Shown: piece after piece, positions 1,691 through 51,865 of the stretch
Layout of the letters: every line of letters begins with the position of its first letter
Position numbering within the stretch: position 1 is the stretch's first letter
Origin: an uncultured Candidatus Saccharibacteria bacterium
Lineage (GTDB): Bacteria > Patescibacteriota > Minisyncoccia > Phycocordibacterales > UBA9973
Assembly: GCA_964356285.1 (NCBI GenBank)
Contig: CAYHGI010000001.1
Location: forward strand, 1 to 60,568
Direction of reading: 5' to 3'
Length of the DNA stretch: 60,568 bases
The notes under the pieces: model-generated
Database searches by the model: none
What the model saw: only the letters and a program-made list of their open reading frames with translations
Told to the model about the DNA's origin: nothing
Made by a program: the position numbers and the translations under genes

Positions 1691-1735
1691 CTGGGCACCT
1701 CCCCCTAAATAGGGGGAGGATGGGTAGGGGTAAGG
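1657..1735. repeat. GC-rich palindromic element (family 1 related) covering the scpB stop
   Basis: Perfect hairpin cctccccct-aaat-agggggagg at 1698-1719. The flanks gacctctc... and ...ggatgggtaggggtaagg resemble the unit at 10007-10049. Confidence 0.6.
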
Positions 1736-1742
1736 TGAATTT

Positions 1743-3470: not shown

Positions 3471-3510
3471 GTATATTATGATATTATCGATAATGTCATA
3501 ATTAAAAATT

Positions 3511-5268: not shown

Positions 5269-5305
5269 GGCTATTCTAATATTCTATAGAATTATAGAAT
5301 GTGTT

Positions 5306-8342: not shown

Positions 8343-8343
8343 T

Positions 8344-9474
8344 ATGAAAATAGTTTTTACAGGCGGAGGAACAGGCGGGCATTTTTATCCCATTATCGCT
8401 ATTGCCCAAAAAGTTAATAAAATAATAGACCAAGAAAATATACTAGGGGTCAAACTATATTATATTTCTGATAATCCTTATGACAAAGAAATGCTTTTTG
8501 AAAATGGAATTTTGTATGAAGCAATTAAGACTGGCAAAATGCGCACTTATTTTTCTTTGAAAAACTTTTTGGACATCTTTCGGACTTTTTTTGGAGTGAT
8601 CAATAGTCTTTTTAAAATATTTTCAATTTATCCGGACGTAATTTTTGGCAAGGGCGGATACGCTTCGTTTCCAACGCTTTTTGCCGCCAGAATTTTACGC
8701 ATTCCCGTGGTAATTCACGAATCAGATTCTGCTCCCGGCCGAGTAAATAAATGGGCTGGGCATTTTGCCAAGAAGATCGCCGTTTCCTTTGCAGAAACTG
8801 GTTCTTTTTTCCCAAAACAAAAAGTAGCTTGGACGGGTCAGCCGATCAGGGCCGAAATAGAGCATCCTGCCGCGCGCAGGGAAGCTCTGGATTATTTTAA
8901 GCTGGAAGGAGATATACCGATTATTCTTGTCCTGGGGGGATCTTTGGGCGCGGAACTTATCAACAATACTGTTTTGGACGCGCTTCCCAGGCTGGTAGGT
9001 AATTATCAGATTATCCATCAAACCGGCATAAACAATTTTCAAGCAGTTCAAGATCGAGCCAATGTTATATTGGCTGATCATCCGCATAAGCTAAGATATT
9101 TACCTTTGTCTTTTCTCGGCCCGTTGCCTTTGAAAATGACTGCTGGGGTGGCTACCATTATAGTTTCTAGAGCTGGATCAATGTTGTTTGAAATAGCCTC
9201 TTGGGGTATCCCGTCTATTTTAATACCTATTACCAATACAAATCTGGATCATCAAAAAAAGAACGCTTTTAACTACGCTCGTTCCGGCGCCTGCAGTGTT
9301 ATTGAAGAAATAAATGCGACTGCCAATATTTTAAGCGCAGAAATTGAGAGGATTACAGGAGATCATGAAATTTACGACAGCATGTCGCAGAGCGCGAAAG
9401 TTTTCAATAAACCCGATGCGGCGATGAAAATCGCCCAGGCCTTGGTGGATATCGCTTTAAGCCACGAAAGATAA
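8344..9474 (+). CDS. murG: UDP-N-acetylglucosamine--lipid I transferase
   Basis: MKIVFTGGGTGGHFYP N-terminus and HQTG motif, in dcw context. Confidence 0.85.
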   Translation: MKIVFTGGGTGGHFYPIIAIAQKVNKIIDQENILGVKLYYISDNPYDKEMLFENGILYEAIKTGKMRTYFSLKNFLDIFRTFFGVINSLFKIFSIYPDVIFGKGGYASFPTLFAARILRIPVVIHESDSAPGRVNKWAGHFAKKIAVSFAETGSFFPKQKVAWTGQPIRAEIEHPAARREALDYFKLEGDIPIILVLGGSLGAELINNTVLDALPRLVGNYQIIHQTGINNFQAVQDRANVILADHPHKLRYLPLSFLGPLPLKMTAGVATIIVSRAGSMLFEIASWGIPSILIPITNTNLDHQKKNAFNYARSGACSVIEEINATANILSAEIERITGDHEIYDSMSQSAKVFNKPDAAMKIAQALVDIALSHER

Positions 9475-9493
9475 ATTAAAAATTAAAAATATA

Positions 9494-9617
9494 ACCCTCC
9501 TAGCCTCCCTTATCAGGGAGGAATAAAATGCAACCCCCTCGTTCCCCCTTATCAGGGGGATGTAAATACGAAGAGAATTTTTTCTCCCCTGATAAGGGGA
9601 GATGTAAGAGGGGTTGA
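9494..9617. repeat. three family-1 palindromic units upstream of the DUF559 gene
   Basis: Perfect hairpins cctccct-tatc-agggagg (9504-9521), tccccct-tatc-aggggga (9543-9560) and tctcccct-gata-aggggaga (9583-9602). The second and third are in opposite orientation, with flanks caaccccctc / gaggggttg. Confidence 0.8.
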
Positions 9618-9636
9618 ATTTGATATAATTAAATCA

Positions 9637-10044
9637 ATGCAAAAGTATAACATTCCTTTTATTCCTTACGAAAAAAATCTAGTTTCTCGAGCAAGAGAAT
9701 TAAGAAAAGAAACCACAGAAGCAGAAAAAATCTTCTGGAATAGAATTTTAAAACATAAAGATTTGCTGAATTTTAAATTTACTAGACAAAAGCCACTTGA
9801 TCATTTTATTGTCGATTTTTATTGTTCAAGTTTAGGACTTGTGATCGAAATAGATGGGATTATTCATGATTTTCAAAAAGTGAGAGATCAAGAAAGGGAC
9901 ACTATTTTGCAGGAAAAATTTGGATTGAAAATAGTAAGATACACAAATGAAGAAGTTATTAATAATACAGAAAAAATTATTCAGGATTTAATAAGAAGAA
10001 CTAAAACCCTCTCCCGACCTCTCCCTTATCAGGGTGAAGGGTAG
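9637..10044 (+). CDS. DUF559 (Vsr-like) endonuclease domain protein
   Basis: 135 aa with the typical LRKETTEAEKIFWNRIL...KFTRQKPLDHFIVDFYC....LVIEIDG..H...RD..RD..L...G..IVRYTNEEV pattern. The C-terminal SRPLPYQGEG is encoded by a family-1 repeat. Confidence 0.8.
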   Translation: MQKYNIPFIPYEKNLVSRARELRKETTEAEKIFWNRILKHKDLLNFKFTRQKPLDHFIVDFYCSSLGLVIEIDGIIHDFQKVRDQERDTILQEKFGLKIVRYTNEEVINNTEKIIQDLIRRTKTLSRPLPYQGEG

Positions 10045-10087
10045 GGTAGTATAAAGTCCCCCTGACAAGGGGGATTTAGGGGGTTGA
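10005..10087. repeat. two family-1 palindromic units at and after the DUF559 3' end
   Basis: ctcccttatcaggg (10021-10034) lies inside the last codons. The perfect hairpin tccccct-gaca-aggggga (10057-10074) is followed by ttagggggttga. Confidence 0.75.
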
Positions 10088-10109
10088 ATTTTTATGCTAT
10101 TATGTAAAT

Positions 10110-11420
10110 ATGTCAGAACTAAAAGTTGTAACTAGATTTGCACCGTCACCGACGGGCCAATTTCATTTAGGCGGTGTTCGTTCCGCTTTGTATAATTATC
10201 TTTTTGCCAGGAAAAATAAGGGTATATATATCCTTCGCAGTGAAGATACGGACAAAGAAAGATCAAAAAAAGAATATGAAGATGATTTTCTGAAGCTTTT
10301 CGAATGGCTGGGGTTGAAGCCTGACAAATTTTTTAGGCAATCGGAAAGAACGGAAATATACAAAAAATATTTAGAAAAAATGATAGCTGATGGTTTTGCC
10401 TATGTTTCCAAAGAAGAAATAAAAGAAGCAGGGCAGAGAAACGAGGTGATCCGTTTTAAGAATCCCAATAAAAAAATCACTTTCAACGACATTATTTTAG
10501 GCAATATCACTTTCAACACAACAGATCTAAAAGATTTTGTTATCGCCAAAAGTTTGACCGAACCGCTTTATAATCTGACCGCCGTAATAGACGATTATGA
10601 AATGGGCATAACTCACGTAATACGCGGGCAAGAACATATTGCCAACACGCCAAGGCAAATTCTGATCCAAGAGGCGATTGGCGCCTCGCGGCCGCTCTAT
10701 GCCCATCTGCCTCTTATTTTAAGCAAAGATAGAGCTAAACTTTCTAAAAGGGATCCCGAAGTAATACCTGCCCTAGAATATAGGGATTTGGGTTATTTGC
10801 CCGCAGCGATTATAAATTTTTTGGCGCTCATCGGCTGGAATCCTGGCGGAGAGCAGGAGGTTTTTACCTTAGCTGAACTGATACAGAAGTTTGATCTAAA
10901 TAAAATACGAAAAAGCGGAGGAGTTTTTAATTCCGAAAAACTTGATTGGCTCAATAAAGAGCATATAAAATTGCTTTCGCCGGAAGAAATAGAAAAAAAC
11001 ATTTTGGCGTGGCTGCCTCCGGATAAGAGAGAGTCCAAACTCATTCCTGTTATTTTTGAACGTATTTCAAAATGGGGCGATGTGAAAGATATGGCTGAAA
11101 AAGGAGAGCTGGATTTCTTTTTCAAAAAACCGGCATACGCCAAAGAAAAACTTGTATATAAAAATTCTTCGCCGGAAAAAACTTTGAATAATTTAAAACA
11201 GGCACTGAATGTTTTGGAAGGTTTGAACGAAAAAGATTTTACCAAAGAAAATATAAAAAAGGTTCTGATGCAGATAGCCGATAAATTAGAAAGTAGGGGA
11301 GAGCTGTTGCATCCGGTAAGATACGCCCTTTCCGGAATGGATAAATCTCCAGACCCTTTTATCATAGCTTCCATCATAGGAAAAAATGAAACCTTATCTA
11401 GATTACAGAAAGCTGTTTAA
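10110..11420 (+). CDS. gltX: glutamyl-tRNA synthetase (short form)
   Basis: RFAPSPTGQFHLGGVRSALYNY (HIGH-type) and KLSKRD (KMSKS-type) motifs; 436 aa. Confidence 0.85.
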   Translation: MSELKVVTRFAPSPTGQFHLGGVRSALYNYLFARKNKGIYILRSEDTDKERSKKEYEDDFLKLFEWLGLKPDKFFRQSERTEIYKKYLEKMIADGFAYVSKEEIKEAGQRNEVIRFKNPNKKITFNDIILGNITFNTTDLKDFVIAKSLTEPLYNLTAVIDDYEMGITHVIRGQEHIANTPRQILIQEAIGASRPLYAHLPLILSKDRAKLSKRDPEVIPALEYRDLGYLPAAIINFLALIGWNPGGEQEVFTLAELIQKFDLNKIRKSGGVFNSEKLDWLNKEHIKLLSPEEIEKNILAWLPPDKRESKLIPVIFERISKWGDVKDMAEKGELDFFFKKPAYAKEKLVYKNSSPEKTLNNLKQALNVLEGLNEKDFTKENIKKVLMQIADKLESRGELLHPVRYALSGMDKSPDPFIIASIIGKNETLSRLQKAV

Positions 11421-30091: not shown

Positions 30092-31450
30092 TTAGAGCGC
30101 GTTTTTTCCTATATCTTTTCGATATTGCATCCCTTCAAAAGATATTTTTTTTATAGCTTTATAGGCTTTTTCTAGCGCTTCTTTGAGGGAATTTCCTGTG
30201 GCAGAAACTCCAAGCACTCGCCCGCCGTTAGTCGTTAGGTCTTGCCTCACAACTTTTGTGCCGGCGTGGAAGATGATTACATCACCTCCCCCTCCCCCCT
30301 CCAACCCTTCCCGACTTCCCCTTATCAGGGGAGGCAAATTGGTTCCCCCTGATAAGAGGGATGCAGGGGGTTTAAGGAGGGGAGGAACTCCCGTAATCAT
30401 TTTCCCTTTTTTATAATTTCCCGGATATCCGCCCGAAGCAAGAACGATATTGCAAACAGACTTATTACTCCATTTTATTTCTGTTTGGTCTAGCTTTTGA
30501 TCAATAGAGTTTTCAATAATTTCTAAAAGATCAGTTTCAAGAAGTCTCATATATGTTTGAGTTTCAGGGTCGCCAAAACGTGCATTGTATTCTAGTATTT
30601 TTGGTCCCTCTTTGGTGAGCATAAGTCCTGGATATAGCACTCCCATAAAAGGTTTTCCATCTTTTTTCATACCCTCCAATGTCGGGGCAACAATTTCTTT
30701 TTCTATTTTTTGCATGAGTTCTTTAGTTACAAATGGCAACGGTGCAATTGTGCCCATGCCGCCTGTATTTGGGCCAGTATCCCCTTCACCAATTTTCTTA
30801 TGATCTTGCGATGGCGGGAACATTTTGTAACTCTTTCCATCAGAAAATGCATGTATTGAGATTTCCGGACCTGTTAAAAACTCTTCGATGACTACTTTAT
30901 TTCCTGACTCACCGAAAACTTTCTTTATCATTATTTCTTCAAGAGTTTCTATTGCTTTTTCTTTAGTCTCACATATAACTGCTCCTTTACCACCTGCGAG
31001 CCCGCTTGCTTTGATCACTATCGGTAGAGTTTGTTTCGTCAGATACTCTTTTGCTTTTTCAAAATCGTTGAATATTTCAAATTTTGCTGTAGGTAAATTA
31101 TGCCGGCGCATGAAATCTTTAGAAAAAGCTTTTGACCATTCTAGCTGTGCCGCCGCTTTTTTCGGGCCCCAGATGCGCAAGTTTGCCTTCTGAAACTCGT
31201 CTACGACACCCAAAGCAAGCGGATCATCGGAAAGAGCCAGCGTTAGGTTAATTTTTTCTTTTTGCGCGAACTCTATAAGCTTAGAAATTTCTGTCTCTTC
31301 GATATCTAAGTTGGTTCCCAGTCGTGCCGTTCCAGCATTACCTCTAGCAAAAAATAATTCTCTCGCTCGTGGTGATTGCGCAATTTTCCATCCGACAGCA
31401 TGCTCTCTTCCTCCTCCTGCTCCAATTATTAAAATTTTTAATTTTGACAT
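30092..31450 (-). CDS. purD: phosphoribosylamine--glycine ligase, carrying an in-frame repeat insertion
   Basis: KILIIGAGGREHA, ATP-grasp core, FHAGTK...TNGGRVLGV. The start is set at MSKLKIL. Confidence 0.9.
   Translation of the reverse strand: MSKLKILIIGAGGGREHAVGWKIAQSPRARELFFARGNAGTARLGTNLDIEETEISKLIEFAQKEKINLTLALSDDPLALGVVDEFQKANLRIWGPKKAAAQLEWSKAFSKDFMRRHNLPTAKFEIFNDFEKAKEYLTKQTLPIVIKASGLAGGKGAVICETKEKAIETLEEIMIKKVFGESGNKVVIEEFLTGPEISIHAFSDGKSYKMFPPSQDHKKIGEGDTGPNTGGMGTIAPLPFVTKELMQKIEKEIVAPTLEGMKKDGKPFMGVLYPGLMLTKEGPKILEYNARFGDPETQTYMRLLETDLLEIIENSIDQKLDQTEIKWSNKSVCNIVLASGGYPGNYKKGKMITGVPPLLKPPASLLSGGTNLPPLIRGSREGLEGGGGGDVIIFHAGTKVVRQDLTTNGGRVLGVSATGNSLKEALEKAYKAIKKISFEGMQYRKDIGKNAL
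30284..30388. repeat. ~105-bp composite family-1 palindromic element inserted in frame in purD
   Basis: Head-to-head units tcccct-tatc-agggga (30317-30332) and tccccct-gata-agaggga (30344-30361). The outer arms cctcccccctccaaccc / gggtttaaggaggggagg are inverted. The element is translated as PPLLKPPASLLSGGTNLPPLIRGSREGLEGGGGG. Confidence 0.8.
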
Positions 31451-31508
31451 GTTGATAATCAACTATATCATAAAGTCCTTTCTTGTGATATAATTCTATT
31501 TTGAAAAT

Positions 31509-31715
31509 ATGAGCATGCCAAGTTGTCAGGTCTGCGGGAAAACATTCCCTTTTGAAGTTTGCGACGGGAGTGGGCGACTACTCTGTGATAATTGTCGGGA
31601 TCCCCGCCAGCTGGCGGACAGATCACAACCACAAACAAATTTCTTTCCCCAAATGGTTGCATATGAAAGGAAAGATAGGACGAGCGACTTTCATCGATCG
31701 TCAAGGGGGTATTGA
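31509..31715 (+). CDS. possible small zinc-ribbon protein in a GC-rich island (weak call)
   Basis: 68-aa ORF with CQVC-x16-CDNC, followed by two hairpins and a T-rich tract. There is no clear SD and the tail is disordered-looking. Confidence 0.25.
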   Translation: MSMPSCQVCGKTFPFEVCDGSGRLLCDNCRDPRQLADRSQPQTNFFPQMVAYERKDRTSDFHRSSRGY

Positions 31716-31773
31716 AAGGATACCCCAGGTATCAGGGAGAAAGGGAGAGTACGAACCATTCGTCCTCCCTCTT

Positions 31774-32325
31774 TCATTTCTTAGAAAGCTTTTCTAAAAC
31801 TTCTACGTATAGCTGATTTTCTTTTTTCTTGAGTCTGGCGTACAAAGATTCAACATTGTCATCAGTTTCAATTTTCTCAAAAGTTCTGCCTAAGACCGGT
31901 CCGAAATCAAAATCCAAAGTTAAAAAATGAATAGAAGATCCTGCATAAGTGCTTTTTTGATCTAGGAAATTAGCAATAGCTTTACTGCCATACATTCCTT
32001 TGTTCCAGAGAGCTTTTGTGTTGTCAGGATTTAATACTTCTCCATTTACTGTGTCTGGGATTAATCCCGGATGTAAATTTAAAATTCTGTTTTCATATTT
32101 TCTTATTATTTCGTCAGGGATTATCTTCTTCCATCCAGCGAGGCATATATAGTCTGGTGATATTTTTTCTAGTATTGATGTAGGGTTTTCTGTGTCCGTT
32201 ATAACCGTAAGAATTTCTGCATTTATAATTTTTGCATCAATGGCACTCCTAACTACTTTTAAGTTAGTTTGAGCGCCCCCTTGGTGAACCATAAAAACCA
32301 ATTTTATTTTATTCTTTTGGAACAT
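31774..32325 (-). CDS. purN: phosphoribosylglycinamide formyltransferase
   Basis: ILNLHPGLIP and formyltransferase fold features. The start is set at MFQKNKIKLVFM, because the longer ORF overlaps purF by more than 200 nt. Confidence 0.75.
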   Translation of the reverse strand: MFQKNKIKLVFMVHQGGAQTNLKVVRSAIDAKIINAEILTVITDTENPTSILEKISPDYICLAGWKKIIPDEIIRKYENRILNLHPGLIPDTVNGEVLNPDNTKALWNKGMYGSKAIANFLDQKSTYAGSSIHFLTLDFDFGPVLGRTFEKIETDDNVESLYARLKKKENQLYVEVLEKLSKK

Positions 32326-33784: not shown

Positions 33785-34558
33785 TTATTTCTTGAAATAA
33801 TTAACAGCATTTTTTAAAATCTTCAGGCCCTTACCCCATTTTTCCATTTTCTCTTTTACTTGCCTGCCCCGTAGGAAGCTTGCTTTCCTTCGGGGCCATA
33901 AAGGGCTTTGGTGCGAGAACATCGCTCGCTCCGGATGCGGCATCATTCCCAGAACTCTCCCATTATAAGCTAAAACTCCAGCAATGTCATAATCCGATCC
34001 GTTTGGGTTGGGTTCTAAGTTTTGAAATTTACAAATCGGACCTTTCACGTATTTGAAGGCTACTGTCCCTTTTTGCTTAGGGTCTACAACATAATGTCCT
34101 TCGCCGTGGGCGATTGGTAGAGATATTTTTTTAATGTTTTTAAGCCATGGACTATTATTTTTTTCGATTTGTAAATCTACCCACCTATCTATATATCTGC
34201 CATTTTTATTTTGCGCTAGAGCGCCGGGCAAGATTCCGAGGTTTGTCATAATCTGAAATCCGTTACAAATCCCTATAGCCAGAGTGTCGCGAGACAAAAA
34301 TTCTTCAAGCTCTTTTGCTAAATGATTTTTAAATTTGTTAGCATACGCCTTGCCGGATCCGGTATCATCTCCATAAGAAAATCCTCCCGGAAAAACGAGG
34401 ATCTGATATTTTGAGAGTATTTTAGGTTCGGCGATCAGATCATTGATGTGCACTATGTCAGCCATGCCTCCCGCAGAGTCAAAAGCGAATTTCGTCTCCT
34501 CTTCGCAATTGAGTCCGTAGCCAGACATTATTATTATTTTTGGATTTTTATTTTTCAT
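33785..34558 (-). CDS. purQ: FGAM synthase glutaminase subunit
   Basis: GICNGFQ (nucleophile Cys) and MPHPER motifs. The start at MKNKNPKIIIMSG shares one base with the upstream stop (TAATG). Confidence 0.85.
   Translation of the reverse strand: MKNKNPKIIIMSGYGLNCEEETKFAFDSAGGMADIVHINDLIAEPKILSKYQILVFPGGFSYGDDTGSGKAYANKFKNHLAKELEEFLSRDTLAIGICNGFQIMTNLGILPGALAQNKNGRYIDRWVDLQIEKNNSPWLKNIKKISLPIAHGEGHYVVDPKQKGTVAFKYVKGPICKFQNLEPNPNGSDYDIAGVLAYNGRVLGMMPHPERAMFSHQSPLWPRRKASFLRGRQVKEKMEKWGKGLKILKNAVNYFKK
33862..33895. repeat. family-2 34-nt palindromic element inside purQ
   Basis: gcctgccccgtaggaagcttgctttccttcgggg, translated as [11 protein letters not shown]. Confidence 0.75.
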
Positions 34559-36267
34559 TAATATATCTCCTGCTGATAACATTTTTCGCAGTATACTATT
34601 TCCGACCTATCCGGTGCATAACTTGTTTTGAATGCCACTTCGCACTTATCTTGTCCATGAAAGTGGCTATTTTTGTCGCACATGCAGACTCTATCCCAAA
34701 GTTTTAGGGGATTTCTTTGACCTATTCTCTCGTAATGCCTGCAATTCGGGCACAATCGTGGCAAAGGCAGGCTCATTCTTTTATAGAATTTAAATTCTTC
34801 CGGAATAATCTTGAACGCTTCCGTGCACTGATGCTTGCATGCGCCGCCATGATTACAAGCAATTACTTTGCCTACTATATCATCTTCTATATCCTTAATA
34901 TTATCCGGGATATTTTTGGTTTCTATGTCAATTTTGTAATTTCTTTTTTCTTCATCTTGCCAGGTATAGTTTTTTGCGAGAGCTTCTTTTTTGGTTAGAG
35001 GAAAATATTCTTGGGCGATGGTTTCATTGTAAGCAAATGGAGATAACTCTTTTGGGAAAAATTCTCCGTATTCGCCTGTTGTTTTCATGTGCTCGATTAT
35101 TTTGGGCACAAGCGCCTCGTATTCTTCTTTGGTGTATTGTTTGTTTAATATACAATAGGATTTTTTACGAAGTCCCTCACATCCAAATATATTTGCACAG
35201 TTGTGACATTCTTCACTGTAGTATGTATTCTGGTTCATTAGATTTCTTATACTAAACGCTGTGTTTGATCCGGCGAAGCCGTGAGCCACTTCATAAAGAA
35301 GTTCGGCATTAAAGCCTTGGAAAGAAGTATCGTAACAATTTTTCGTTCCCCTTCTACAGAAGAACAAGTATTTCGAGTTTTCTGTCTGTCCGGAAGTAAA
35401 AGATATCTGGGTGTTTCTGGCTTCAGAAAGATCATCCCCGCTGGAATTCACGGATTTGTAAATACGAGCGTATCTGTGAGGCACATTTAATTTTAATTTT
35501 TGTAGCCTTTCTAAATTTTTTAAATGCTTAGTGTAACTTCCCTGATTTTCTTTTGTAAACTCTTTGTATGTTTCTTTAGTGACAGGCTGATTAAATATAT
35601 GATATTTTTTATTTACCAATCCGACGCAACCGAAACATTTTGTACAATTTCTACAATCAATTAAGTAGTAACTCTCCACGCAGTCTTTTGAGTAAGAGCT
35701 GAAAAAGACTTTATTAAATGATTTAGATTCGAAAATTTCATAACTGAACTCAATTTTCGAGGAAAAAGCTATATCCAAAGAATCGCGAGATTCGACGACC
35801 TGATTGCCGAAGTAAATTCTCTCATTGTTCATTCCCCCAAATAGCAAATAACATTCCTTAAAATCCAGACCATAGTTACAATAATCGCTCAAGATAAAAT
35901 TGTCGCGGTAAAGATTTACTCTGGGGACTGCTTCCATGAGAACTTTGAACTGATCAAAGAAAGGTTTAGAAAAATCGTAATCCTTACCGTAATCTATCGG
36001 ATTCCATTTATCGGAGAGCCAGCAATCGCGGCAATAAATAGTGTAGGGGCGACTTTTGTGATATATGGTGAGAACTGGCTCGTGGCATAAGACGCATTCT
36101 CTTTTGTAAAGAACTCTGTTGTTTCTAAAAAGCAATCTTCTCTGAAACCTGCATTCTGGGCAAAAAGTCGGCGACGGCACCTTCATCTTCTCATAAAATC
36201 CAAAATCATCCGACTCAATGACGAATTCTTTTTGGCAGTTTTGGCAATTTTTTGTTTCAGTTTTCAT
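34558..36267 (-). CDS. cysteine-rich protein with N- and C-terminal double zinc-ribbon modules (paralogue 3)
   Basis: 569 aa. It starts MKTETKNCQNCQKEFVIESDDFGFYEKMKVPSPTFCPECR and ends FKTSYAPDRSEIVYCEKCYQQEIY. It lies between purL and purQ. Confidence 0.8.
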   Translation of the reverse strand: MKTETKNCQNCQKEFVIESDDFGFYEKMKVPSPTFCPECRFQRRLLFRNNRVLYKRECVLCHEPVLTIYHKSRPYTIYCRDCWLSDKWNPIDYGKDYDFSKPFFDQFKVLMEAVPRVNLYRDNFILSDYCNYGLDFKECYLLFGGMNNERIYFGNQVVESRDSLDIAFSSKIEFSYEIFESKSFNKVFFSSYSKDCVESYYLIDCRNCTKCFGCVGLVNKKYHIFNQPVTKETYKEFTKENQGSYTKHLKNLERLQKLKLNVPHRYARIYKSVNSSGDDLSEARNTQISFTSGQTENSKYLFFCRRGTKNCYDTSFQGFNAELLYEVAHGFAGSNTAFSIRNLMNQNTYYSEECHNCANIFGCEGLRKKSYCILNKQYTKEEYEALVPKIIEHMKTTGEYGEFFPKELSPFAYNETIAQEYFPLTKKEALAKNYTWQDEEKRNYKIDIETKNIPDNIKDIEDDIVGKVIACNHGGACKHQCTEAFKIIPEEFKFYKRMSLPLPRLCPNCRHYERIGQRNPLKLWDRVCMCDKNSHFHGQDKCEVAFKTSYAPDRSEIVYCEKCYQQEIY

Positions 36268-36317
36268 AATTACATATTTACGCCATGGCTGAAATGTGTG
36301 TTTTTCATGTTTCTTTG

Positions 36318-39233
36318 CTATTGTTGTGAATTTGAAAACTTATGATAAATGCTGTGCAGTTTTTTGACATTGGTGTCTATAATTTTTTTCCTGCTTTCGA
36401 TTATAACTACTTTACTATTATTTCCAACTTTCCCAATCTTAGCATAAGTAATTTTTTGCATTAATTTTTCAAATAGCTTGGCATTTTTAGGAGAAACAGA
36501 TACCAAAATCCTGCCCTGTGATTCAGAAAAAAGCCTTGTTTCTATGGATAAAACGGAAGCAAGGCTTCCGTTTTTTTGTGCCATTATCTGGTCTAGAGAA
36601 ACATTGTAGCCGAGCATGCCGCCTATACAGGCTTTGGCGAGAGCTATTCCTAGGCCTCCTGAAGTTATGGAAAGAGAAGAAGTCACAAGCTCTTTGTTAA
36701 TAGCTTGCTCGAGCGTCTGATAAGTTTTTAGATTCTTTTCAAGGTTAACTTTTGGAACAATTTCATCATGAGTTTCACCCAATAAATAAATTACGTCGCC
36801 ACTATTTTTAAATTCAGGTGAAACTGTTTTATATAGATCTGGCATGACGCTTATGCCAGAGATAAGGAGTGTCGGTGGAATAGAAATAGCCACTGGATTC
36901 CCCTTCTCATCAAATCCTTTGAAATCGTTGAACATGCTGTCCTTACCGGAGATAAAAGGCGTGCCGTAGGCTACGGCGCAGTCGTAGCACGCTTTTACGG
37001 CCTCTTTGAGCTGGTAGAGCCTTTTTGGATCATTCGATGAGCACCAACAGAAATTATCAAGTAGGGCGAGATGATTTAAGGTACCACCAGCGGATATAAT
37101 ATTTCGAACTGCCGTATCTATAGCGCAGGCCGCCATCTGATAGATATCTATGTCTCCATATGAAGGATAAACTCCGTAAGAAAGCACCACCCCTTTATCT
37201 GAATTCAACACTGGCTTAATGACTTGGGCGTCAGTATTTATTCTTCCAGGACCGGACAAAGGTTTAAGTACAGAAGAAGCTTGAACTTCATGATCATATT
37301 GTTCAGAGATAAAAGAATATCCGGAAATGTTTTTGTCACGAAGGAGGTTTTCGAGAATTTTATTCACCTCTCCTGGCTTTTCAGCCACCCTCTCCTTGAC
37401 AAGGAGAGGGGCTGGGGGTGAGGTTTTTAGTTGTTCCTTCGGCAATCCGTTATGCAAAAAATTCATCTCCAAATCCATTATTTTCTTTCTCTTGTGATCC
37501 ACAACTACTCTTCCTGAATTTATAAATTCCCCTATTGTCGTCGCTTCTACTCCTCGACTCTTCATTAATTTTTGAAATTTTTTCCATTTATTTTTTGGTA
37601 CCGATAAAGTCATGCGTTCTTGCGACTCTGAAATCCATATTTCCCACGGTTTGAGTCCCGGATATTTTAGCGGAACTTTATCTAAATAAATTTTTACACC
37701 ATTACACTCCTTTGCCATTTCGGCGACAGAAGACGAGAGGCCCCCTGCGCCATTGTCCGTAATACTATTGTATAATCCTTGACCCCGAGCTTCTTTTATT
37801 ATGGCATCGCTCAATTTCTTTTGAGTTATCGGGTCCCCTATTTGTACCGCAGTCGCTGGCGAATGTGAATCTATATTTTCCGAAGAAAATGTCGCTCCGT
37901 GGATGCCGTCAAGTCCAATTCTTCCCCCTACCATTACCACATAATCTCCGGGCTGCGCCTTCTTTTCGTGCATAAGTCTGCCTTTTACCTTCCTTGGAAT
38001 AAGACCGACTGTGCCTGCGAAAACCATCGGCTTGGCGCGATAGCGATTGTCAAATCTGATAAATCCTGAAATAGTAGGAATTCCGGAACAATTTCCGCCG
38101 ACGTTTATACCCTTGATTACTCCCTCCATTATTCTTTTTGGAGGAAGCATTGGTTGAGTTGAATTTCTATCTCTAAAGAATTTTCTTTTATCATCCAGGT
38201 TACTAAAACAAAATCCGTATGTATTGGCGACAGGTTTTGCTCCCAATCCGAACCCTATAGCATCTCGATTGACTCCTCCTATACCAGTAACCGCTCCTCC
38301 ATAAGGATCCAGAGCTGAAGGACTGTTGTGAGTCTCCACCTTATGAGTAATTAAATAATTTTTATTAAAAATTATTCCGCCGGCATTGTCTGAAAATACT
38401 GAAATGCAAAAATCCCCGCCTTTGGACGGGGCAAGCTTCCCTCTTTCTTGTTTTTGTTTTCTGATTAAATTCGTCGCGCCCTTTATGTAAGTTTTATATA
38501 AACCGTCTCTAATATCATCTATTGAATTCGCGAAAATAGTGTGCTTGCAATGCTCCGACCATGTCTGGGCAAGTGATTCCAGCTCTATATCCGTCGGATC
38601 TCTTTTTAGCTTGGCGAAATAAGCTTGTATTGCCTTCATGTATAACAGAGAAAGAGCCAACGGGCCGCGACGACGCCCTGTCTCATCCATAATTCCCTCC
38701 TTGCCTATTTTTGTGAGTTCTTCATCAGAGACATCAAGGGATACATTCAAGACTGAAGCGCCTTTCTTTAAAATTACTTCCGGAACTTTATTTGGAAATT
38801 TTACTTTTCCATCTTTGAGTTTCAAAATATTTACTCTCTCTATGAGCGGGTTATATAAAGTTTGAGCTATGGTTTTAACCTCATTATCTGTGCGGGAACC
38901 AGAAATAAAAAAAATTTTAGATGTATATACTTTTATATCTAAATCTTTTTTAAGATGAAGTAAGTCTTTAGCTATTTCTTCAACTGTATGGCCTACATTA
39001 TCTGTCACTCCCGGCAAGAAACCAATCTCGATGGCATATGTAAAAGATGTCGGACGTCGAGATTCCAGACGTCCGACGTCAAGGGATTCATTGATCGAAT
39101 AGTTTTCTAGAATTGGATTAGTAATAGCCTCCGCTAACTTCGTGAGTTCTTTTTTTGATAATTTAGAGTCAATAAGGTAAGAATCTGCTCTTGTACTTCC
39201 CTTTTTCGGCATCACATATATCCGCGAAATCAT
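36318..39233 (-). CDS. purL: FGAM synthase large subunit with N-terminal extension (possible fused PurS-like domain)
   Basis: 971 aa with WSEHCKHTIF, duplicated PurM-like halves and GKDSMFN. About 170 aa precede the usual PurL start. Confidence 0.9.
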   Translation of the reverse strand: MISRIYVMPKKGSTRADSYLIDSKLSKKELTKLAEAITNPILENYSINESLDVGRLESRRPTSFTYAIEIGFLPGVTDNVGHTVEEIAKDLLHLKKDLDIKVYTSKIFFISGSRTDNEVKTIAQTLYNPLIERVNILKLKDGKVKFPNKVPEVILKKGASVLNVSLDVSDEELTKIGKEGIMDETGRRRGPLALSLLYMKAIQAYFAKLKRDPTDIELESLAQTWSEHCKHTIFANSIDDIRDGLYKTYIKGATNLIRKQKQERGKLAPSKGGDFCISVFSDNAGGIIFNKNYLITHKVETHNSPSALDPYGGAVTGIGGVNRDAIGFGLGAKPVANTYGFCFSNLDDKRKFFRDRNSTQPMLPPKRIMEGVIKGINVGGNCSGIPTISGFIRFDNRYRAKPMVFAGTVGLIPRKVKGRLMHEKKAQPGDYVVMVGGRIGLDGIHGATFSSENIDSHSPATAVQIGDPITQKKLSDAIIKEARGQGLYNSITDNGAGGLSSSVAEMAKECNGVKIYLDKVPLKYPGLKPWEIWISESQERMTLSVPKNKWKKFQKLMKSRGVEATTIGEFINSGRVVVDHKRKKIMDLEMNFLHNGLPKEQLKTSPPAPLLVKERVAEKPGEVNKILENLLRDKNISGYSFISEQYDHEVQASSVLKPLSGPGRINTDAQVIKPVLNSDKGVVLSYGVYPSYGDIDIYQMAACAIDTAVRNIISAGGTLNHLALLDNFCWCSSNDPKRLYQLKEAVKACYDCAVAYGTPFISGKDSMFNDFKGFDEKGNPVAISIPPTLLISGISVMPDLYKTVSPEFKNSGDVIYLLGETHDEIVPKVNLEKNLKTYQTLEQAINKELVTSSLSITSGGLGIALAKACIGGMLGYNVSLDQIMAQKNGSLASVLSIETRLFSESQGRILVSVSPKNAKLFEKLMQKITYAKIGKVGNNSKVVIIESRKKIIDTNVKKLHSIYHKFSNSQQ
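37388..37410. repeat. family-1-like hairpin inside purL
   Basis: ccctctcct-tgaca-aggagaggg flanked by cagccac / gctgggggtgagg; translated as PPAPLLVKERVAE. Confidence 0.65.
39046..39080. repeat. family-3 (GACGTC-core) palindromic element inside purL
   Basis: gtcggacgtc-gagattcca-gacgtccgac; translated as DVGRLESRRPTS. Confidence 0.7.
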
Positions 39234-47183: not shown

Positions 47184-49532
47184 TTACAATTTCTTTGCCT
47201 TGATTCTTAAAGAGTTCGAAACTACCGATACTGAAGACATCGCCATGGCAAATCCGGCAAAGATCGGTGAAAGAAGCCAGCCAAAGATCGGATAAAATAA
47301 TCCAGTTGCCAGCGGAATACCCACTATATTATATATGAAAGCCCAAAAAAGATTCTGCTTAATGCCCCGCATTGTCATTTTTGAAAGTTTTATCGCTTTC
47401 ACCAATTTTGAAATATCTCCGTGTAAAAGCGTAATTCCGGCGGATTCGATGGCAACATCGGTGCCGGTCGCCATGGCGATGCCCACGTCCGCTTGCGCCA
47501 AGGCCGGCGCGTCGTTGACTCCATCTCCCGCCATCGCCACGATACGCCCTTCTATTTGCAGTTCTTTTATTTTATTTAGTTTATCTTCCGGCATTACTTC
47601 GGCAATCACTTCATCAATGCCGACTAATTTTGCAATATACTCAGCCGTATTTTTATTGTCCCCTGTCAGCATAACCATTTTAATGCCAAGCTTGTGAAGA
47701 TTTCTGACCGCTTCAATCGCTTCGGGTTTAATGGCATCAGCGATCATAACGATGCCGAATACTGCATTTTTATCTGCAAGGATAACTGGAGTTTTGCCTT
47801 CTAGGGTTTCTTTTTGGAGCACCGCTTTATCAAATTTTAAATTAAGATCTTTTATAAGTTTAATATTGCCGGCGAAATATTCTTTTCCATCAATTGTTCC
47901 TTTCAACCCTTGACCTTTGATTATCGCGAAATCTTGCGCCTCGGTAATTTGTATTTTATTTTGTTTAGCATATTCGATAACCGCATGAGCAATCGGGTGT
48001 TCTGATTTATTTTCTAATGTTGCCAGTATTGAAATAAAGTCCTCGTCATTTTTTTGCGAGTAATTTTTAATGCTGACAAGTTCTGGTTTGCCTTTCGTTA
48101 TTGTTCCCGTCTTGTCAGCCACTATTATATTCACCTTGTGCAGTTTCTCAAGCGTGGCCGCGTCTTTAATCAAAATGCCTTCTTTCGCCCCCTTGCCCAC
48201 ACCTACGATAATCGCGGTCGGCGTCGCGAGTCCTAAAGCGCATGGACAAGCAATAACAAGGACGCCTACAAATGACACAAGTCCAAAGGAAAGCGCTTGG
48301 GAAAAACCGAGGTATGACGTTCCGACAATAAGCCAGAGCGCTAAGGAAACAATAGATATGTCTAAAACAATAGGCACAAAAACACTCGAAATTTTATCAG
48401 CTAAAGCCTGAATGGGCGCCTTACTACTTTGCGCTTCTTCCACCATTTTGATTATATGGGCAAGCAATGTTTCCGAGCCGACTTTTGTAGCTTTGAATGT
48501 GAATGACCCGCTGGTGTTTATTGTAGCGGCAATCACGTTGTCCCCTACTTTTTTTTGAGTCGGCATAGGCTCGCCGGTCACCATCGATTCATCTACAAAA
48601 GAAGAACCTTCCGTGATTAATCCATCGACAGGAATCTTCGCCCCCGGTTTTACAATCACAAAATCTCCATGTTTGACATCGTTGACTGAAATTTCTATTT
48701 CTTTTCCGCCTGCCCCGTAGGAAGCTGGCTTTCCTTCGGGGTCTCGGATGACCAAGGCAGTCTTAGCTTGGAGATTTAAAAGTTTTTCGATAGCATCGCC
48801 GGTTTTTAATTTTGATTTAGCTTCCAAATATTTGCCAAGCGCGATAAAAGTGATAACAATTATTGTGATATCATAATAAGTGGCTTCCACATTTATAAAC
48901 GACCGAAGTGGTTCTTCGAGCGCGGTAATCGCGAAGCTGTATAAATAAGCGGCTACGGTGCCGATGCCGATAAGTGTATCCATATTCGCTTTACCGTAAC
49001 GAAGAAAACGAAAAAAACCCAAAAGATACGGTTTGCCCACCACGAACAAAACATACGTAGCCATTAGGGGCAGAAGATGATGAAAAAATTCTTTGGCCGT
49101 ATAGCTCATTGCGGACACAACATTGTATTGCGCTAAAATGTCCCAACTTAAAATAAGAGAACTGATTATGGCAAGCGGAATGGCCGAAATTACTTTGATT
49201 TTCATATCTCTTATCTCAACCAGCTTTTCAGTTTTTGACTGGCCGAGCCCCAGATGCGCTTTATGTTCATCCTCGGTCATGTCCATCCCGCTTGCGCTGA
49301 GCATAGTCGAAGTGTTTGCCGCAGGTATGATAAGCGAATAACCAAGCGGTTCAATTTTTTTGGAAAGAGATTCTGGATTAATCTTTGTTTCATCAAAATT
49401 TATTTTTACCGATTCATTCCCGTAATTTGCTTCCACGGTATTAACTCCATCGATTTTTTTGAAAGTTCTCTCAATTATCCCCGTGCAAGAAGCGCAGTGC
49501 ATTCCTTTTATTTTATAAGTTTTATTTTGCAT
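47184..49532 (-). CDS. copA: copper-translocating P1B-type ATPase
   Basis: N-terminal HMA domain GMHCASCTG, the CPC motif ([11 protein letters not shown]), DKTGTIT and GDGVNDAP. Confidence 0.95.
48708..48741. repeat. family-2 34-nt palindromic element inside copA
   Basis: gcctgccccgtaggaagctggctttccttcgggg; translated as [11 protein letters not shown] between VIRD and GKEIEI. Confidence 0.8.
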
Positions 49533-50941: not shown

Positions 50942-51814
50942 TCACTTCATGAGAGCTTCTAGTTGGGTCAAGAGCGCTTCGGCGCTTTGGATCTTCTTGA
51001 GCTTATCTTCGAGCTCAAGTAAGACAACTTTCTGGAGCGTGATCTGCTCCTCTATCGCCGGCTTCTCGGCGACGAGACGCTGAGCCCGCACGAGCGGGTC
51101 CGTCGACTCTATTGGTGGCTCCTCGCCAACGTGGCCGAGGAGCTTTTCTGTTGCGCGGTACTGGCCTGCGTTAGTCGCCCCTTCTGTGACAACTGCTTCG
51201 AGCCACCCCTCGGTCACCATCATTGAGTTGGTGGTCGTGATTCCAGCTGTTCGTCGGATTTCTCCGACGACGTTCTTGGAGACAAGCCCGTTCCCACTTT
51301 TCTCGGCCTCAGCCTTGAAAAGTCGTGCGAACTTGTCGATTGGTTGTTGTTCCATTTTTTTCGTTTCCTTTCTTAGGCCCTGATCCAACAGGGCAGTTAA
51401 CATTTCTATTGCAGGAACTACGGAAACAACGGGCGTTGGCGTTTCCACCACATCGCTCAGTGCCACCGTTTTGACGACCAGCGGCGTTACCGCCACTGGG
51501 TGTAGCAAGTCGGAACAAGCTACCAGTAGCCTTTTTATTTCACCATTAGAGAGCACCACAGGGTGGGTCTCACTTCGAACCTTGATTCGTTCAAGGGTCT
51601 TATGGTCAATAAATCTGCTACTGACAACCAGACCGACGTTGTGTCGTAGACTCGAAGGAGCATGGTGATAGAACATCACCCGCCCCTCCTTACTGATTTG
51701 TCTCGTCTTGGGATCGTGATTTGAGTCACGCCAGCCGAGCACAATCAGTGTCTTTCCTTCTGCTAGCACGTTTCGCATGCGTTGCAGAAGTGCCTGTCTT
51801 TGTTCTGTTATCAA
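50942..51814 (-). CDS. hypothetical protein in a GC-rich single-gene island
   Basis: Long ORF of about 50-55% GC by eye. The strong SD GAGGAGG (51823-51829) lies 8 nt upstream of TTG at 51814. I recognise no domain. Confidence 0.6.
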   Translation of the reverse strand: MITEQRQALLQRMRNVLAEGKTLIVLGWRDSNHDPKTRQISKEGRVMFYHHAPSSLRHNVGLVVSSRFIDHKTLERIKVRSETHPVVLSNGEIKRLLVACSDLLHPVAVTPLVVKTVALSDVVETPTPVVSVVPAIEMLTALLDQGLRKETKKMEQQPIDKFARLFKAEAEKSGNGLVSKNVVGEIRRTAGITTTNSMMVTEGWLEAVVTEGATNAGQYRATEKLLGHVGEEPPIESTDPLVRAQRLVAEKPAIEEQITLQKVVLLELEDKLKKIQSAEALLTQLEALMK

Positions 51815-51837
51815 TGTAGGTACCTCCTCAGTTCGAG

Positions 51838-51865
51838 ATAATAACATATTTTTATAAAATGTCAA
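51838..51865 (-). promoter_or_regulatory. sigma70-like promoter of the GC-rich island gene
   Basis: On the minus strand: TTGACA (51865-51860), a 16-nt spacer, then TATTAT (51843-51838). Confidence 0.45.

Follow-up and report, generated by a model that had tools for sequence, protein, structure and literature searches.

In-frame, nested repeats of the BoxC/PIT/TM class in a Patescibacteria purD gene and their physical linkage to DUF559 genes

A composite palindrome within purD

The window analysed here is a stretch of DNA of 60,568 nucleotides, in which purD (GAR synthetase; 30092..31462, minus strand) is an intact ORF of 456 aa that keeps all invariant residues. Its product matches GARS_N, GARS_A and GARS_C, the match to the C domain being broken into two stretches. 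The gene carries a composite palindrome at 30284..30388 (palindromic features carry no strand assignment here), which codes for residues ~359-394 (VPPLLKPPASLLSGGTNLPPLIRGSREGLEGGGGGD). Around it, PurD reads ...GKMITGVPPLLKPPASLLSGGTNLPPLIRGSREGLEGGGGGDVIIFHAGTK..., the same peptide that the initial annotation had given for this ORF. That a GC-rich imperfect palindrome lies there in frame was confirmed: its GC is 0.55-0.58, against 0.39 for the window, and it folds as a single long imperfect hairpin of -71.7 kcal/mol (z = -4.7), a stability reached by 0/200 shuffled sequences.

The extent of the additional segment was established by comparison with known PurD proteins. Solved PurDs align with residues 8-360 and 394-455 of the window protein and have only ~6 residues of their own between these two blocks, and 27 residues placed just before the FHAGT strand are extra relative to 120 orthologues. 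The extra segment first claimed is therefore real, but its net size is 27 rather than ~28 residues.

The ancestral state of the site, G[IV]xEAExxxD[IV]VVFHAGT, is AT-rich and has no hairpin. Because this empty site is found in ~60 Patescibacteria orthologues and in outgroup phyla, the purD segment is a derived insertion, and the orthologue alignment bears out the insertion reading proposed at the outset. Among orthologues, the site holds at least five sequence types of insert, each a stop-free multiple of three that leaves the downstream domain in the same frame. From one lineage to the next, these inserts share neither sequence nor length, and close relatives are without them. A target-site duplication, which the initial annotation had suggested looking for, was not found: the distribution of direct repeats in the flanks of 79 copies equals that of the permuted control. 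Complementarity of the flanks over at least 3 nt was observed in 13/79 copies, against 2.6 expected.

Two nested insertion events

The 105 bp are the product of two nested insertion events, namely an older short unit and a younger doublet of ~70 nt. The inner element (30303..30373) is a family-1 doublet of the form AACCC...GGGGTT(T), ~70 nt long, composed of two inverted TM-type arms. Its two head-to-head units, CCCCTTATCAGGGG at 30318 and CCCCTGATAAGAGG at 30346, form the small hairpins TTCCCCTTATCAGGGGAG (unit A, 30316..30333) and TCCCCCTGATAAGAGGGA (unit B, 30344..30361, slightly degenerate). On either side lie the parts of the older TM unit, both on the minus strand. The C-block (30374..30385; coding strand CCTCCCCTCCTT) encodes PPLL and is the same at 12/12 positions in the purD loci of the relatives L002 and L005, both of which are without the inner element, while the G-block and mirror G-block (30284..30302; coding strand GGAGGGGGGAGGGGGAGGT) encode EGGGGG.

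In L002 and L005, the purD site reads CCTCCCCTCCTT-GTG-GAGGAGGGGG, i.e., the older unit alone. In the window, the same 12-nt arm is followed by the 71 nt of the family-1 element and then by the G-blocks, which places the doublet in loop 1 of the older short unit. A second nested case was found in PurL of locus L024. The initial description of a single 105-bp composite was thus right as to the two head-to-head family-1 units, but the outer inverted arms belong to a separate older unit and not to the same element. Relative to L002, the inner element brings a net gain of 66 nt, or 22 codons, and the older unit contributes the remaining ~5 of the 27 residues.

Arm identity and geometry, rather than a resolved tree, suggest that the outer unit came first and the inner one second; an NJ tree of PurD with the insert site masked was star-like, with empty and filled orthologues interspersed, and did not order the two insertions. 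The purD copy shows mismatches in both arms and is decaying. Most core elements (AACCCC..GGGGTT) inside genes have a length that is not divisible by three, falling at 1 or 2 modulo 3; trimming or selection must therefore have acted on the junctions, and the termini of the core are not those of the inserted segment. Comparing element length modulo 3 between copies in ORFs and intergenic copies was uninformative.

A dispersed family with three-block arms

Family-1 units also occur at 9545, 9586 and 10059, where they flank a DUF559 gene, and the window holds 10 matches in total against 0.04 expected. The proposed correspondence between the purD units and those at 9.5-10.1 kb is thereby upheld. 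The family-1 signature was found on at least 120 metagenome contigs, and the same loop sequence, TGATAA/TTATCA, accompanies DUF559 in contigs of 31-61% GC. Copies from other genomes, located within unrelated genes as well as between genes, share 82-87% identity with the purD copy over the whole of its inner ~70 nt (85-87% for those in PurL of L015 and L024 and in RNase R of L105), and the copies beside DUF559 in the same genome as purD share only 70-74%. The older purD unit matches a hairpin family that adjoins another DUF559 gene (L168).

Units of the family are 35 nt long and doublets 62-108 nt (median 74 nt), with terminal inverted repeats AACCCC...GGGGTT; sequence conservation stops abruptly at GGGGTT. 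Arms follow the consensus CCCTGAYAA-GGGGAGG-N3-4-GGAGGGG-TT. In 91% of 151 arms the inner G-run equals the outer one, compared with 34% when partners are permuted; the mirror-repeat score behind this result was anchored on the fixed ends, a first anchoring on the variable spacer having given a null. By the layout of its arms, each consisting of a C-block, a loop, a G-block, a short loop and a mirror G-block, the purD insert is made of repeats of the BoxC/PIT/"TM" class. A triplex fold of the family-1 arms is predicted from the covariation of the mirror repeats. A generic TM finder flags 30304-30334 in the window purD as well as the purD inserts of L001, L002, L004, L005, L006 and L050.

When the 36-aa insert peptide was compared exhaustively with 1.84 billion proteins by phmmer, 0 hits reached E <= 0.001, a result of low power given so short and low-complexity a query. 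Viral contigs yielded only 6 stretches, none near DUF559, which leaves phage-borne spread without support, and no IS element was seen next to any copy.

In-frame copies in other genes

The window contains further units of the class. One lies in frame in PurL (37387..37423, minus strand; peptide TSPPAPLLVKERV), at a site hit in 13 lineages, and another is intergenic, at the 3′ end of a gene (1698..1731, plus strand). A scan of the window for GC islands proved too noisy, and a stem-loop census with a shuffle control was used in its place: it returned 9 strong GC hairpins against ~0.7 in shuffles, 7/9 of them within ORFs. In an unbiased sample of Patescibacteria, a major uncultured lineage, 29/32 TM loci lie within genes and keep the frame, and this PurD loop, a PurL loop and the PurN-PurD linker stand out as reproducible hot spots.

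In-frame host genes elsewhere include RNase R, LigA, FtsK, trigger factor, KsgA, PurL, an MmeI-type methyltransferase and OGDH E1, and an insert in CopA was verified against solved structures. In some relatives, TM peptides make up the linker of fused PurN-PurD proteins, and selfish DNA would on this view routinely supply streamlined genomes with loops and linkers.

Relation to known repeat systems

The TM repeats of E. coli (TMECO) are reported as "always located intergenically", and the BoxC/PIT/TM class is known from E. coli and cyanobacteria only as intergenic repeats (PMC4666352). The elements described here are like them in the three-block build (C-stem, loop of 3-6 nt, G-stem, loop of ~3 nt, mirror G-stem), and both are GC-rich, dispersed and over-represented, often occur as inverted doublets ("palindromic TM") and have no transposase nearby. 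They differ in that the Patescibacteria loci are mostly intragenic and in frame, the intergenic rule being a description of E. coli and not a strict definition. Family-1 also shares the architecture but not the consensus of TMECO (CCCTCNCCC-N3-6-GGGNGAGGG-N3-GGGNGAGGG): its stems measure 7 nt, its loop is fixed as TGATAA/TTATCA and it ends in AACCCC/GGGGTT, while TMECO has 9-nt CCCTCNCCC stems. The older purD unit (TCCCCTCCTT-GTG-GAGGAGGGGG-CT-GGGGGTGGT) and the PurL unit at 37387 are closer to the TMECO consensus than family-1 is. Salmonella reportedly lacks TMECO. Holder et al. (2015) reported no stable triplex in vivo in E. coli, and their account of TM repeats contains neither a linkage to DUF559 nor an occurrence in Patescibacteria (PMC4666352). 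In the literature covered, searches on palindromic or in-frame elements in Patescibacteria, and on DUF559 with repeats, returned no description, in agreement with the initial annotation, which knew of no equivalent in this lineage.

In behaviour, the closest parallel is with the Rickettsia palindromic elements (RPEs; Ogata et al. 2000, 2002), and the initial comparison with them proved apt, given the in-frame occurrence of the family in several housekeeping genes. As summarised in PMC10969869 and PMC3184786, RPEs are ~105-146 bp long and confined to Rickettsia. By these accounts, both groups are dispersed palindromes found in frame in unrelated housekeeping genes, where the ORF is kept and predictions see no conflict between insert and protein fold; both show an unusually high share of in-gene copies and encode no transposase. 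Unlike RPEs as portrayed there, the elements described here are 35-nt units or doublets of ~62-108 nt, GC-rich in an AT-rich genome, with a three-block mirror (triplex-type) build, a distribution from Patescibacteria to proteobacteria, nesting and linkage to DUF559. From families RPE-1 to RPE-10, the purD element is set apart by lineage (Patescibacteria) and length (~70 nt). In-frame "protein-coding palindromes" have so far been treated as a peculiarity of Rickettsia; here a different class of repeats, of far wider distribution, behaves in this way as a rule.

Other systems share some of these features. As in REP/REPIN-RAYT systems, inverted doublets of short palindromes give a long hairpin, copies bracket a single-copy, vertically inherited nuclease gene, target-site duplications are absent, and clustering and nesting occur (PMC3116915, PMC3337134, PMC5581495). 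In contrast, the partner here would be a PD-(D/E)XK DUF559 protein and not a Y1 HUH (IS200/IS605-like) transposase, the termini are AACCCC/GGGGTT and not GTAG or CGTC (PMC3733652), and the copies are mostly intragenic, whereas REPs are extragenic by definition. MITEs such as ERIC, BOX, QMITE1, Nezha and Correia are likewise short, non-autonomous elements with terminal inverted repeats that form stable RNA or DNA hairpins and are occasionally fused in frame to host ORFs (PMC10969869, PMC3184786). A MITE, however, is by definition flanked by a target-site duplication and derived from an IS whose terminal repeats match its own, and a classical MITE was rejected on the lack of a duplication among the 79 copies.

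Linkage to DUF559 and a possible mode of spread

The DUF559 gene of the window (PF04480; Vsr-like PD-(D/E)XK; 9637..10044, plus strand) encodes a candidate partner nuclease and occupies the conserved slot murG-DUF559-gltX. Because of this conserved syntenic position, DUF559 is not itself mobile. Directly upstream, at 9494..9618, lie a single TM unit (9494-9521) and a family-1 doublet (9532-9618); another family-1 doublet (10003..10088) lies directly downstream, and the DUF559 ORF reads into it. In an early set, 10/10 DUF559 genes found by HMM were flanked by repeats. DUF559 was found in none of 80 purD loci by tblastn or HMM, and the association was therefore tested on separately fetched loci. 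When loci were selected by protein, 4/4 from Patescibacteria were flanked on both sides, against a background of 4 units per 1.04 Mb; of those from cyanobacteria, alpha-, beta- and gamma-proteobacteria and E. coli, 6/9 were flanked by TM units, against a background of 1.7% (P ~2e-9). Taken together, 10/13 protein-selected loci are flanked (P ~7e-16), including E. coli ycjD, a DUF559 gene that has a canonical TMECO 169 nt away. The units often occupy both flanks, or form arrays that begin <200 nt from the gene. Repeats and DUF559 are thus physically linked.

We regard as probable an overall explanation in which nested copies of the TM class entered purD in a frame-preserving manner and are translated as a disordered loop, with DUF559 proposed to act in trans. 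In this model, an older single unit, CCTCCCCTCCTT-loop-GGAGGGGG-GGGGGAGGT, would first have replaced the ancestral AT-rich loop codons of purD, and an inverted doublet of ~70 nt, AACCC...CCCCTTATCAGGGG...CCCCTGATAAGGGG...GGGGTT, would later have landed in the first loop of that unit. Both insertions happened to keep the frame without introducing a stop, and the inserted DNA would therefore be transcribed and translated. Between two beta-strands directly ahead of FHAGT, PurD would gain a disordered stretch of ~33 residues rich in Pro and Gly, its fold being unchanged. Selection would spare insertions only in permissive loops and linkers, and existing hairpins may attract new copies through a putative targeting to hairpin loops; both effects would give rise to hot spots. 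Spread of the repeats is probably a DNA-level process that leaves no target-site duplication, and the DUF559 PD-(D/E)XK nuclease is proposed to act in trans on the repeats that bracket it, as RAYT does on REP/REPIN.

By this analogy, DUF559 is a candidate for the mobilisation of the repeats or for some catalytic role in it; the repeats could instead target the flanks of DUF559, or DUF559 could act against them. A serious contender, to which we give somewhat less than an even chance, is that the insertion is real and translated but that DUF559 is not the mover. The repeats would then owe their spread or maintenance to host processes (replication, recombination or repair) that act on non-B DNA, with DUF559 as a preferred neighbour (target, regulator or counteracting nuclease). 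Holder et al. associate TM repeats with local instability and found neither a transposase nor an integrase close by (PMC4666352). The vertical inheritance of DUF559 in its fixed slot, the lack of a TM unit at 3/8 DUF559 loci from a plasmid collection and the location of most TM copies far from any DUF559 gene all speak for this reading. Against it stand the adjacency itself, which extends from Patescibacteria to E. coli and often involves both flanks or arrays, the specific TGATAA/TTATCA loop that travels with DUF559 across contigs of widely different GC, and the resemblance of a resident single-copy nuclease flanked by its own repeats to the REP/RAYT pattern (PMC3337134; PMC5581495).

The broader proposal, which we put forward tentatively as a possibility and not as the expected outcome, is that DUF559 proteins, E. 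coli YcjD included, are dedicated partners of BoxC/PIT/TM repeats. They would form a second domesticated nuclease-repeat system of the REP/RAYT kind, built on a PD-(D/E)XK nuclease and extending from Patescibacteria through cyanobacteria to proteobacteria, with in-frame colonisation of coding sequences as the rule in Patescibacteria. If DUF559 is such a partner, its repeats would create disordered loops in the housekeeping enzymes of Patescibacteria and even the linkers of PurN-PurD fusions. For 30 years, neither a partner of the BoxC/PIT/TM intrastrand-triplex repeats (Bergler 1992; Hoyne/Maher 2000) nor a mechanism of their spread has been known, and DUF559 is without a known function; the tight linkage of repeats and gene, which includes E. 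coli K-12, makes both questions approachable by standard genetics and biochemistry.

The insert in PurD and alternative readings of it

An AlphaFold model of the window PurD has a pLDDT of 86.7 overall and below 50 for residues 363-392. It superimposes on solved PurDs with a TM-score of 0.94-0.95, the insert being disordered between two strands. Frame preservation and the lack of stops in all inserts, the disorder of the insert in the model and the absence of an RNA-family match make it most likely that the insert is translated, and the structure prediction suggests that it most likely gives a tolerated floppy loop. Of the two fates initially considered for the element, toleration as a loop is accordingly favoured over removal.

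It is unlikely that the Pro/Gly-rich loop was co-opted for a new PurD function, such as an interaction surface or regulation through the mRNA hairpin, and is kept by positive selection. The repeated hits at the purD site would fit such a role, as would the TM peptides that serve as PurN-PurD linkers in relatives and can thus be structurally useful. However, the inserts differ completely between lineages, close relatives do without one, the purD copy is decaying with both arms mismatched, and the model shows no ordered structure; variable, decaying and disordered inserts fit tolerance rather than function.

An origin of the extra segment by local events (slippage, duplication or a repair-generated palindrome in a flexible loop), rather than as a copy of a dispersed element, appears very improbable. 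Such loops do tolerate indels, no target-site duplication points to a transposition, and the older short unit is of low complexity (P/G codons) and variable between lineages. Yet the inner 70 nt match, over their full length, copies that other genomes carry within unrelated genes and between genes, and they also match the DUF559-flanking units of the same window, and the older unit both matches the hairpin family beside the L168 DUF559 gene and fits the three-block TM pattern.

We give very little credence to the removal of the insert before the enzyme matures, whether by excision of the hairpin from the RNA or by protein splicing or processing, in which case PurD would not actually be longer. 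The RNA hairpin is stable enough to be, in principle, a processing signal. Nevertheless, at least five types of insert at the purD site and those in ~10 other host genes all keep the frame without a stop, an outcome with a chance of at most (1/3)^n, and this counts against removal since excised inserts need no frame. An endonucleolytic cut in the mRNA hairpin would moreover destroy the message, and at 22-35 residues the inserts are far below the size of an intein. Rfam searches over the insert and the whole window returned one tRNA and otherwise sub-threshold, miRNA-like generic hairpin hits, with no match to an intron family. An intron or intein was rejected on size and frame conservation.

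Repeats often confuse or break metagenome assemblies, and many DUF559 contigs are very short, but an artefact or chimera built from mis-assembled repeat-containing reads can be dismissed with near certainty, as an identical 452-aa PurD product with the insert was found on 6 contigs from at least 4 independent Hainich groundwater samples and assemblers (ENA and Logan), the reading frame is intact and analogous inserts occur in many independent MAGs.

In practical terms, Patescibacteria MAGs are affected by such inserts in that proteins come out longer, Pfam hits to a domain are split and assemblies break. Peptides predicted to span the insert junctions in PurD include the tryptic peptide MITGVPPLLKPPASLLSGGTNLPPLIR as well as EGLEGGGGGDVIIFHAGTK.

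An in-frame insertion in purD

The purD gene (30092-31462, minus strand) encodes a PurD of 456 aa with GARS_N, GARS_A and GARS_C matches, the last of which is broken into two stretches. The initial annotation placed an in-frame GC-rich imperfect palindrome within this gene, and its description holds: the ORF is intact around the peptide ...GKMITGVPPLLKPPASLLSGGTNLPPLIRGSREGLEGGGGGDVIIFHAGTK, and the DNA at 30284-30388 has a GC content of 0.55-0.58, against 0.39 for the window, and is predicted to fold into a single long imperfect hairpin (-71.7 kcal/mol, z = -4.7). The alignment of orthologues agrees, as the uninterrupted motif G[IV]xEAExxxD[IV]VVFHAGT occupies the site in most orthologues, of which 120 proteins and 80 loci were compared, as well as in all outgroup phyla, and the insert-free site is AT-rich and forms no hairpin. 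By this comparison, the extra segment is an insertion of 27 residues relative to orthologues; solved PurDs align to positions 8-360 and 394-455 of the window PurD, and in them about 6 residues separate the two stretches. It is not an artefact, because the identical protein was assembled in at least four independent Hainich groundwater samples. The source organism is a Patescibacterium of the Nomurabacteria/Paceibacteria group.

Two fates had been proposed for the insert, namely tolerance as a loop or removal. Every independent insert is free of stops and keeps the downstream domain in frame, which excised sequences would not need, and this argues for translation. In the AlphaFold model of the window PurD (pLDDT 86.7, pTM 0.87), residues 363-392, between a strand ending near 357 and one starting at 395, have pLDDT below 50, while the remainder matches solved GAR synthetases with TM-scores of 0.94-0.95. 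We infer that, instead of being removed, the segment is translated and forms a disordered loop. Rfam returned only sub-threshold miRNA-like hairpin matches.

The same PurD site carries other, unrelated Pro/Gly-rich inserts in at least 18 orthologues (e.g., LTPPLAPLSLSRRGEGG, SPLEEYPLGGGGNASTPSRKRATPQEGN and NLKKHHLAFGTPPQKGGE), whose DNA likewise forms GC-rich hairpins, compared with at most three inserts at any other PurD site.

Two nested elements

The insert had been read as one composite element of 105 bp. Its palindromic, in-frame character stands, but comparison with two relatives' purD loci (L002 and L005) resolves it into two nested events. These relatives read GGAGTT CCTCCCCTCCTT GTG GAGGAGGGGG(C/T)(T/A)GGGGGTGGT GAC, encoding PPLLVEEGAGGG, and the window reads GGAGTT CCTCCCCTCCTT [AAACCCCC...GGGTT, 71 nt] GGAGGGGGGAGGGGGAGGT GAT, so that a family-1 doublet at 30303-30373, a net gain of 66 nt, interrupts loop 1 of a short, older unit. 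The proposed order derives from geometry and the identity of the 12-nt arm rather than from a resolved tree, the PurD tree being star-like with filled and empty orthologues intermixed. Nesting of the same kind is found in PurL of locus L024.

Anatomy and class of the repeat

The units of the purD palindrome, CCCCTTATCAGGGG and CCCCTGATAAGAGG, are found again at 9545, 9586 and 10059, around the DUF559 gene, as initially annotated, and the window holds 10 family-1 unit matches against 0.04 expected. At least 120 metagenome contigs, with GC contents of 23-64%, carry the signature CCCTTATCAGGG-N10-40-CCCTGAYAAGRGG. Identity of the purD copy to those in other genomes is 82-87%, but to the copies beside its own genome's DUF559 gene it reaches only 70-74%. 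Alignment of 180 arms gives the consensus CCCTGAYAA-G(n)A..-3-4 nt-..AG(n)-TT, and since conservation ends directly after GGGGTT, the termini are AACCCC and GGGGTT, with a median element length of 74 nt. The G-blocks within each arm are co-varying mirror repeats, their G-runs being equal in length in 91% of 151 unique arms, compared with 34% with permuted partners (rho 0.91). No target-site duplication (TSD) was found for family-1; flank complementarity of at least 3 nt is enriched (13 of 79 copies versus 2.6 expected).

Repeats of this architecture have been described before: Holder et al. (2015) equated BoxC, PIT and "TM/TMECO" repeats under the pattern CCCTCNCCC-N3-6-GGGNGAGGG-N3-GGGNGAGGG, with purine-motif intrastrand triplex formation in vitro, 3,610 copies across 262 genomes of proteobacteria, numerous cyanobacterial copies, frequent inverted doublets, E. 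coli copies "always located intergenically", and no associated transposase, integrase or gene class (PMC4666352). A generic three-block finder matches the purD arm at 30304-30334, the purD inserts of six loci (L001, L002, L004, L005, L006 and L050) and every DUF559-flanking unit. Judged by architecture, family-1 is best filed in the BoxC/PIT/TM class (hereafter TM), from whose described intergenic habit it departs. The parallel drawn earlier with Rickettsia palindromic elements (RPEs) is sound for behaviour, yet the element is not an RPE family member. It resembles REPIN/RAYT in organisation but lacks the defining enzyme and sequence features, and the absence of TSDs sets it apart from MITEs.

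In-frame copies as the rule

Genes that carry family-1 copies in frame encode RNase R, trigger factor, FtsK, LigA, KsgA, an MmeI-type methyltransferase and 2-oxoglutarate dehydrogenase E1; copies also occur in PurL of L015 and L024. The 80 purD loci and the window form a sample whose selection did not depend on the repeat; of the 32 TM loci in its patescibacterial part, 29 are in frame inside ORFs of at least 150 aa. In-frame copies are the rule in this major uncultured lineage, and so nearly universal a position within genes is of interest in itself.

Further hot spots accompany that of PurD. In PurL, GLPKHHLKT-[TM]-YTKDLENLL is occupied by different TM sequences in 13 lineages: the window (37387-37423, PurL identity confirmed) and L001, L003, L004, L005, L009, L011, L015, L016, L023, L024, L029 and L030. 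The TM peptide TSPQPSPERRG, at the junction of PurN and PurD, is the linker of fused PurN-PurD proteins of 630-683 aa (e.g., P0014), encoded at L004 9966-9997, L005 9955-9998, L009 9951-9998 and L016 9939-9975; a TM repeat may have bridged or created this gene fusion. The third is a linker in a protein of 520-570 aa (L006, L033) that may be GMP synthase, to go by its VILGVSGG motif.

The window contains nine strong GC hairpins against about 0.7 in shuffles, and seven, of several families, lie inside ORFs. A second family, CCCCGAAGGAAAG...CTTCCTACGGGG, occurs, also in frame, at the C-terminus of PurQ and in a CopA-type ATPase and TopA (33866-33896, 48713-48741 and 56371-56406); the 11-residue ATPase insert was verified against solved CopA. 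A third, GTCGGACGTC...GACGTCCGAC, encodes ...DVGR...RPTS... peptides in PurL (39046-39080) and TopA (57287-57327), and similar peptides occur in PurD of P0039, P0105 and L037.

Association with DUF559

The DUF559 gene (9637-10044; PF04480, E = 3.7e-30) has family-1 elements on both sides, as do all four homologues retrieved by protein search (L201-L204), against a background of 4 units per 1.04 Mb. Because the murG-DUF559-gltX slot (8308-11420 in the window) is conserved in three of these four (L201-L203; several Nomurabacteria), DUF559 is a resident, vertically inherited gene. High-GC contigs carry the same element upstream of DUF559. Many homologues are found on very short contigs, which would follow if the flanking repeats disrupt assembly.

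Eight annotated DUF559 loci were chosen by tblastn from a plasmid collection, three of which have no TM units. TM units adjoin DUF559 in Synechocystis, Sphingomonas and Azospirillum; a 6-unit array begins 186 nt downstream in Neisseria gonorrhoeae (L221 5498-6190) and a 15-unit array 53 nt downstream in Photobacterium (L222 5356-6939), both long and regular with alternating strands. In E. coli K-12, a canonical TMECO lies 169 nt downstream of the DUF559 gene ycjD, in the ycjD-fabI spacer from which BoxC was originally reported; this unit is a dispersed repeat, found at a median of 19 positions per genome across 5,426 genomes. That spacer (L215 4240-4420) also contains a duplicated ycjD 3'-end fragment, with a degenerate unit at the ycjD stop on one side and the canonical TMECO on the other, a layout that fits TM-associated local rearrangement. 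With a TM unit in 1.74% of 750-nt windows as background, 6 of 9 DUF559 loci are flanked (P ~2e-9), and 10 of 13 overall (P ~7e-16). A literature search found no paper tying DUF559 to repeats, and the linkage is testable in E. coli.

A dispersed TM-class doublet interrupts the loop of an earlier TM unit within a permissive PurD loop, with the frame preserved, and its family, free of TSDs, is physically tied to DUF559. Hot spots would reflect structural tolerance, and new copies may in addition be drawn to hairpins already present. DUF559 might act in trans on hairpin or triplex DNA, as RAYT does on REPINs, a proposal to which we give somewhat less than an even chance. In its main rival, the repeats are spread by host replication or repair, and DUF559 is a neighbour or antagonist.

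Other features of the window

Between purN and purD lies a 313-nt spacer (31463-31775) unique to the window genome, with no similarity in the approximately 220 loci compared, the same population excepted; it is predicted to be structured as RNA (z = -3.07) and gave no Rfam match. In relatives, the two genes are either directly adjacent or fused. Regions 1736-5292 and 34558-36274 share long inverted similarities (71-80% over 74-214 nt), by which the tandem ORFs 1743-3470 and 3511-5268 resemble ORF 34558-36267, probably as oppositely oriented paralogues. Finally, a stretch of 128 nt (51055-51182, 0.66 GC, predicted fold -56 kcal/mol) within ORF 50942-51865 contains the hairpin GCTCCTCGCC...GGCGAGGAGC.
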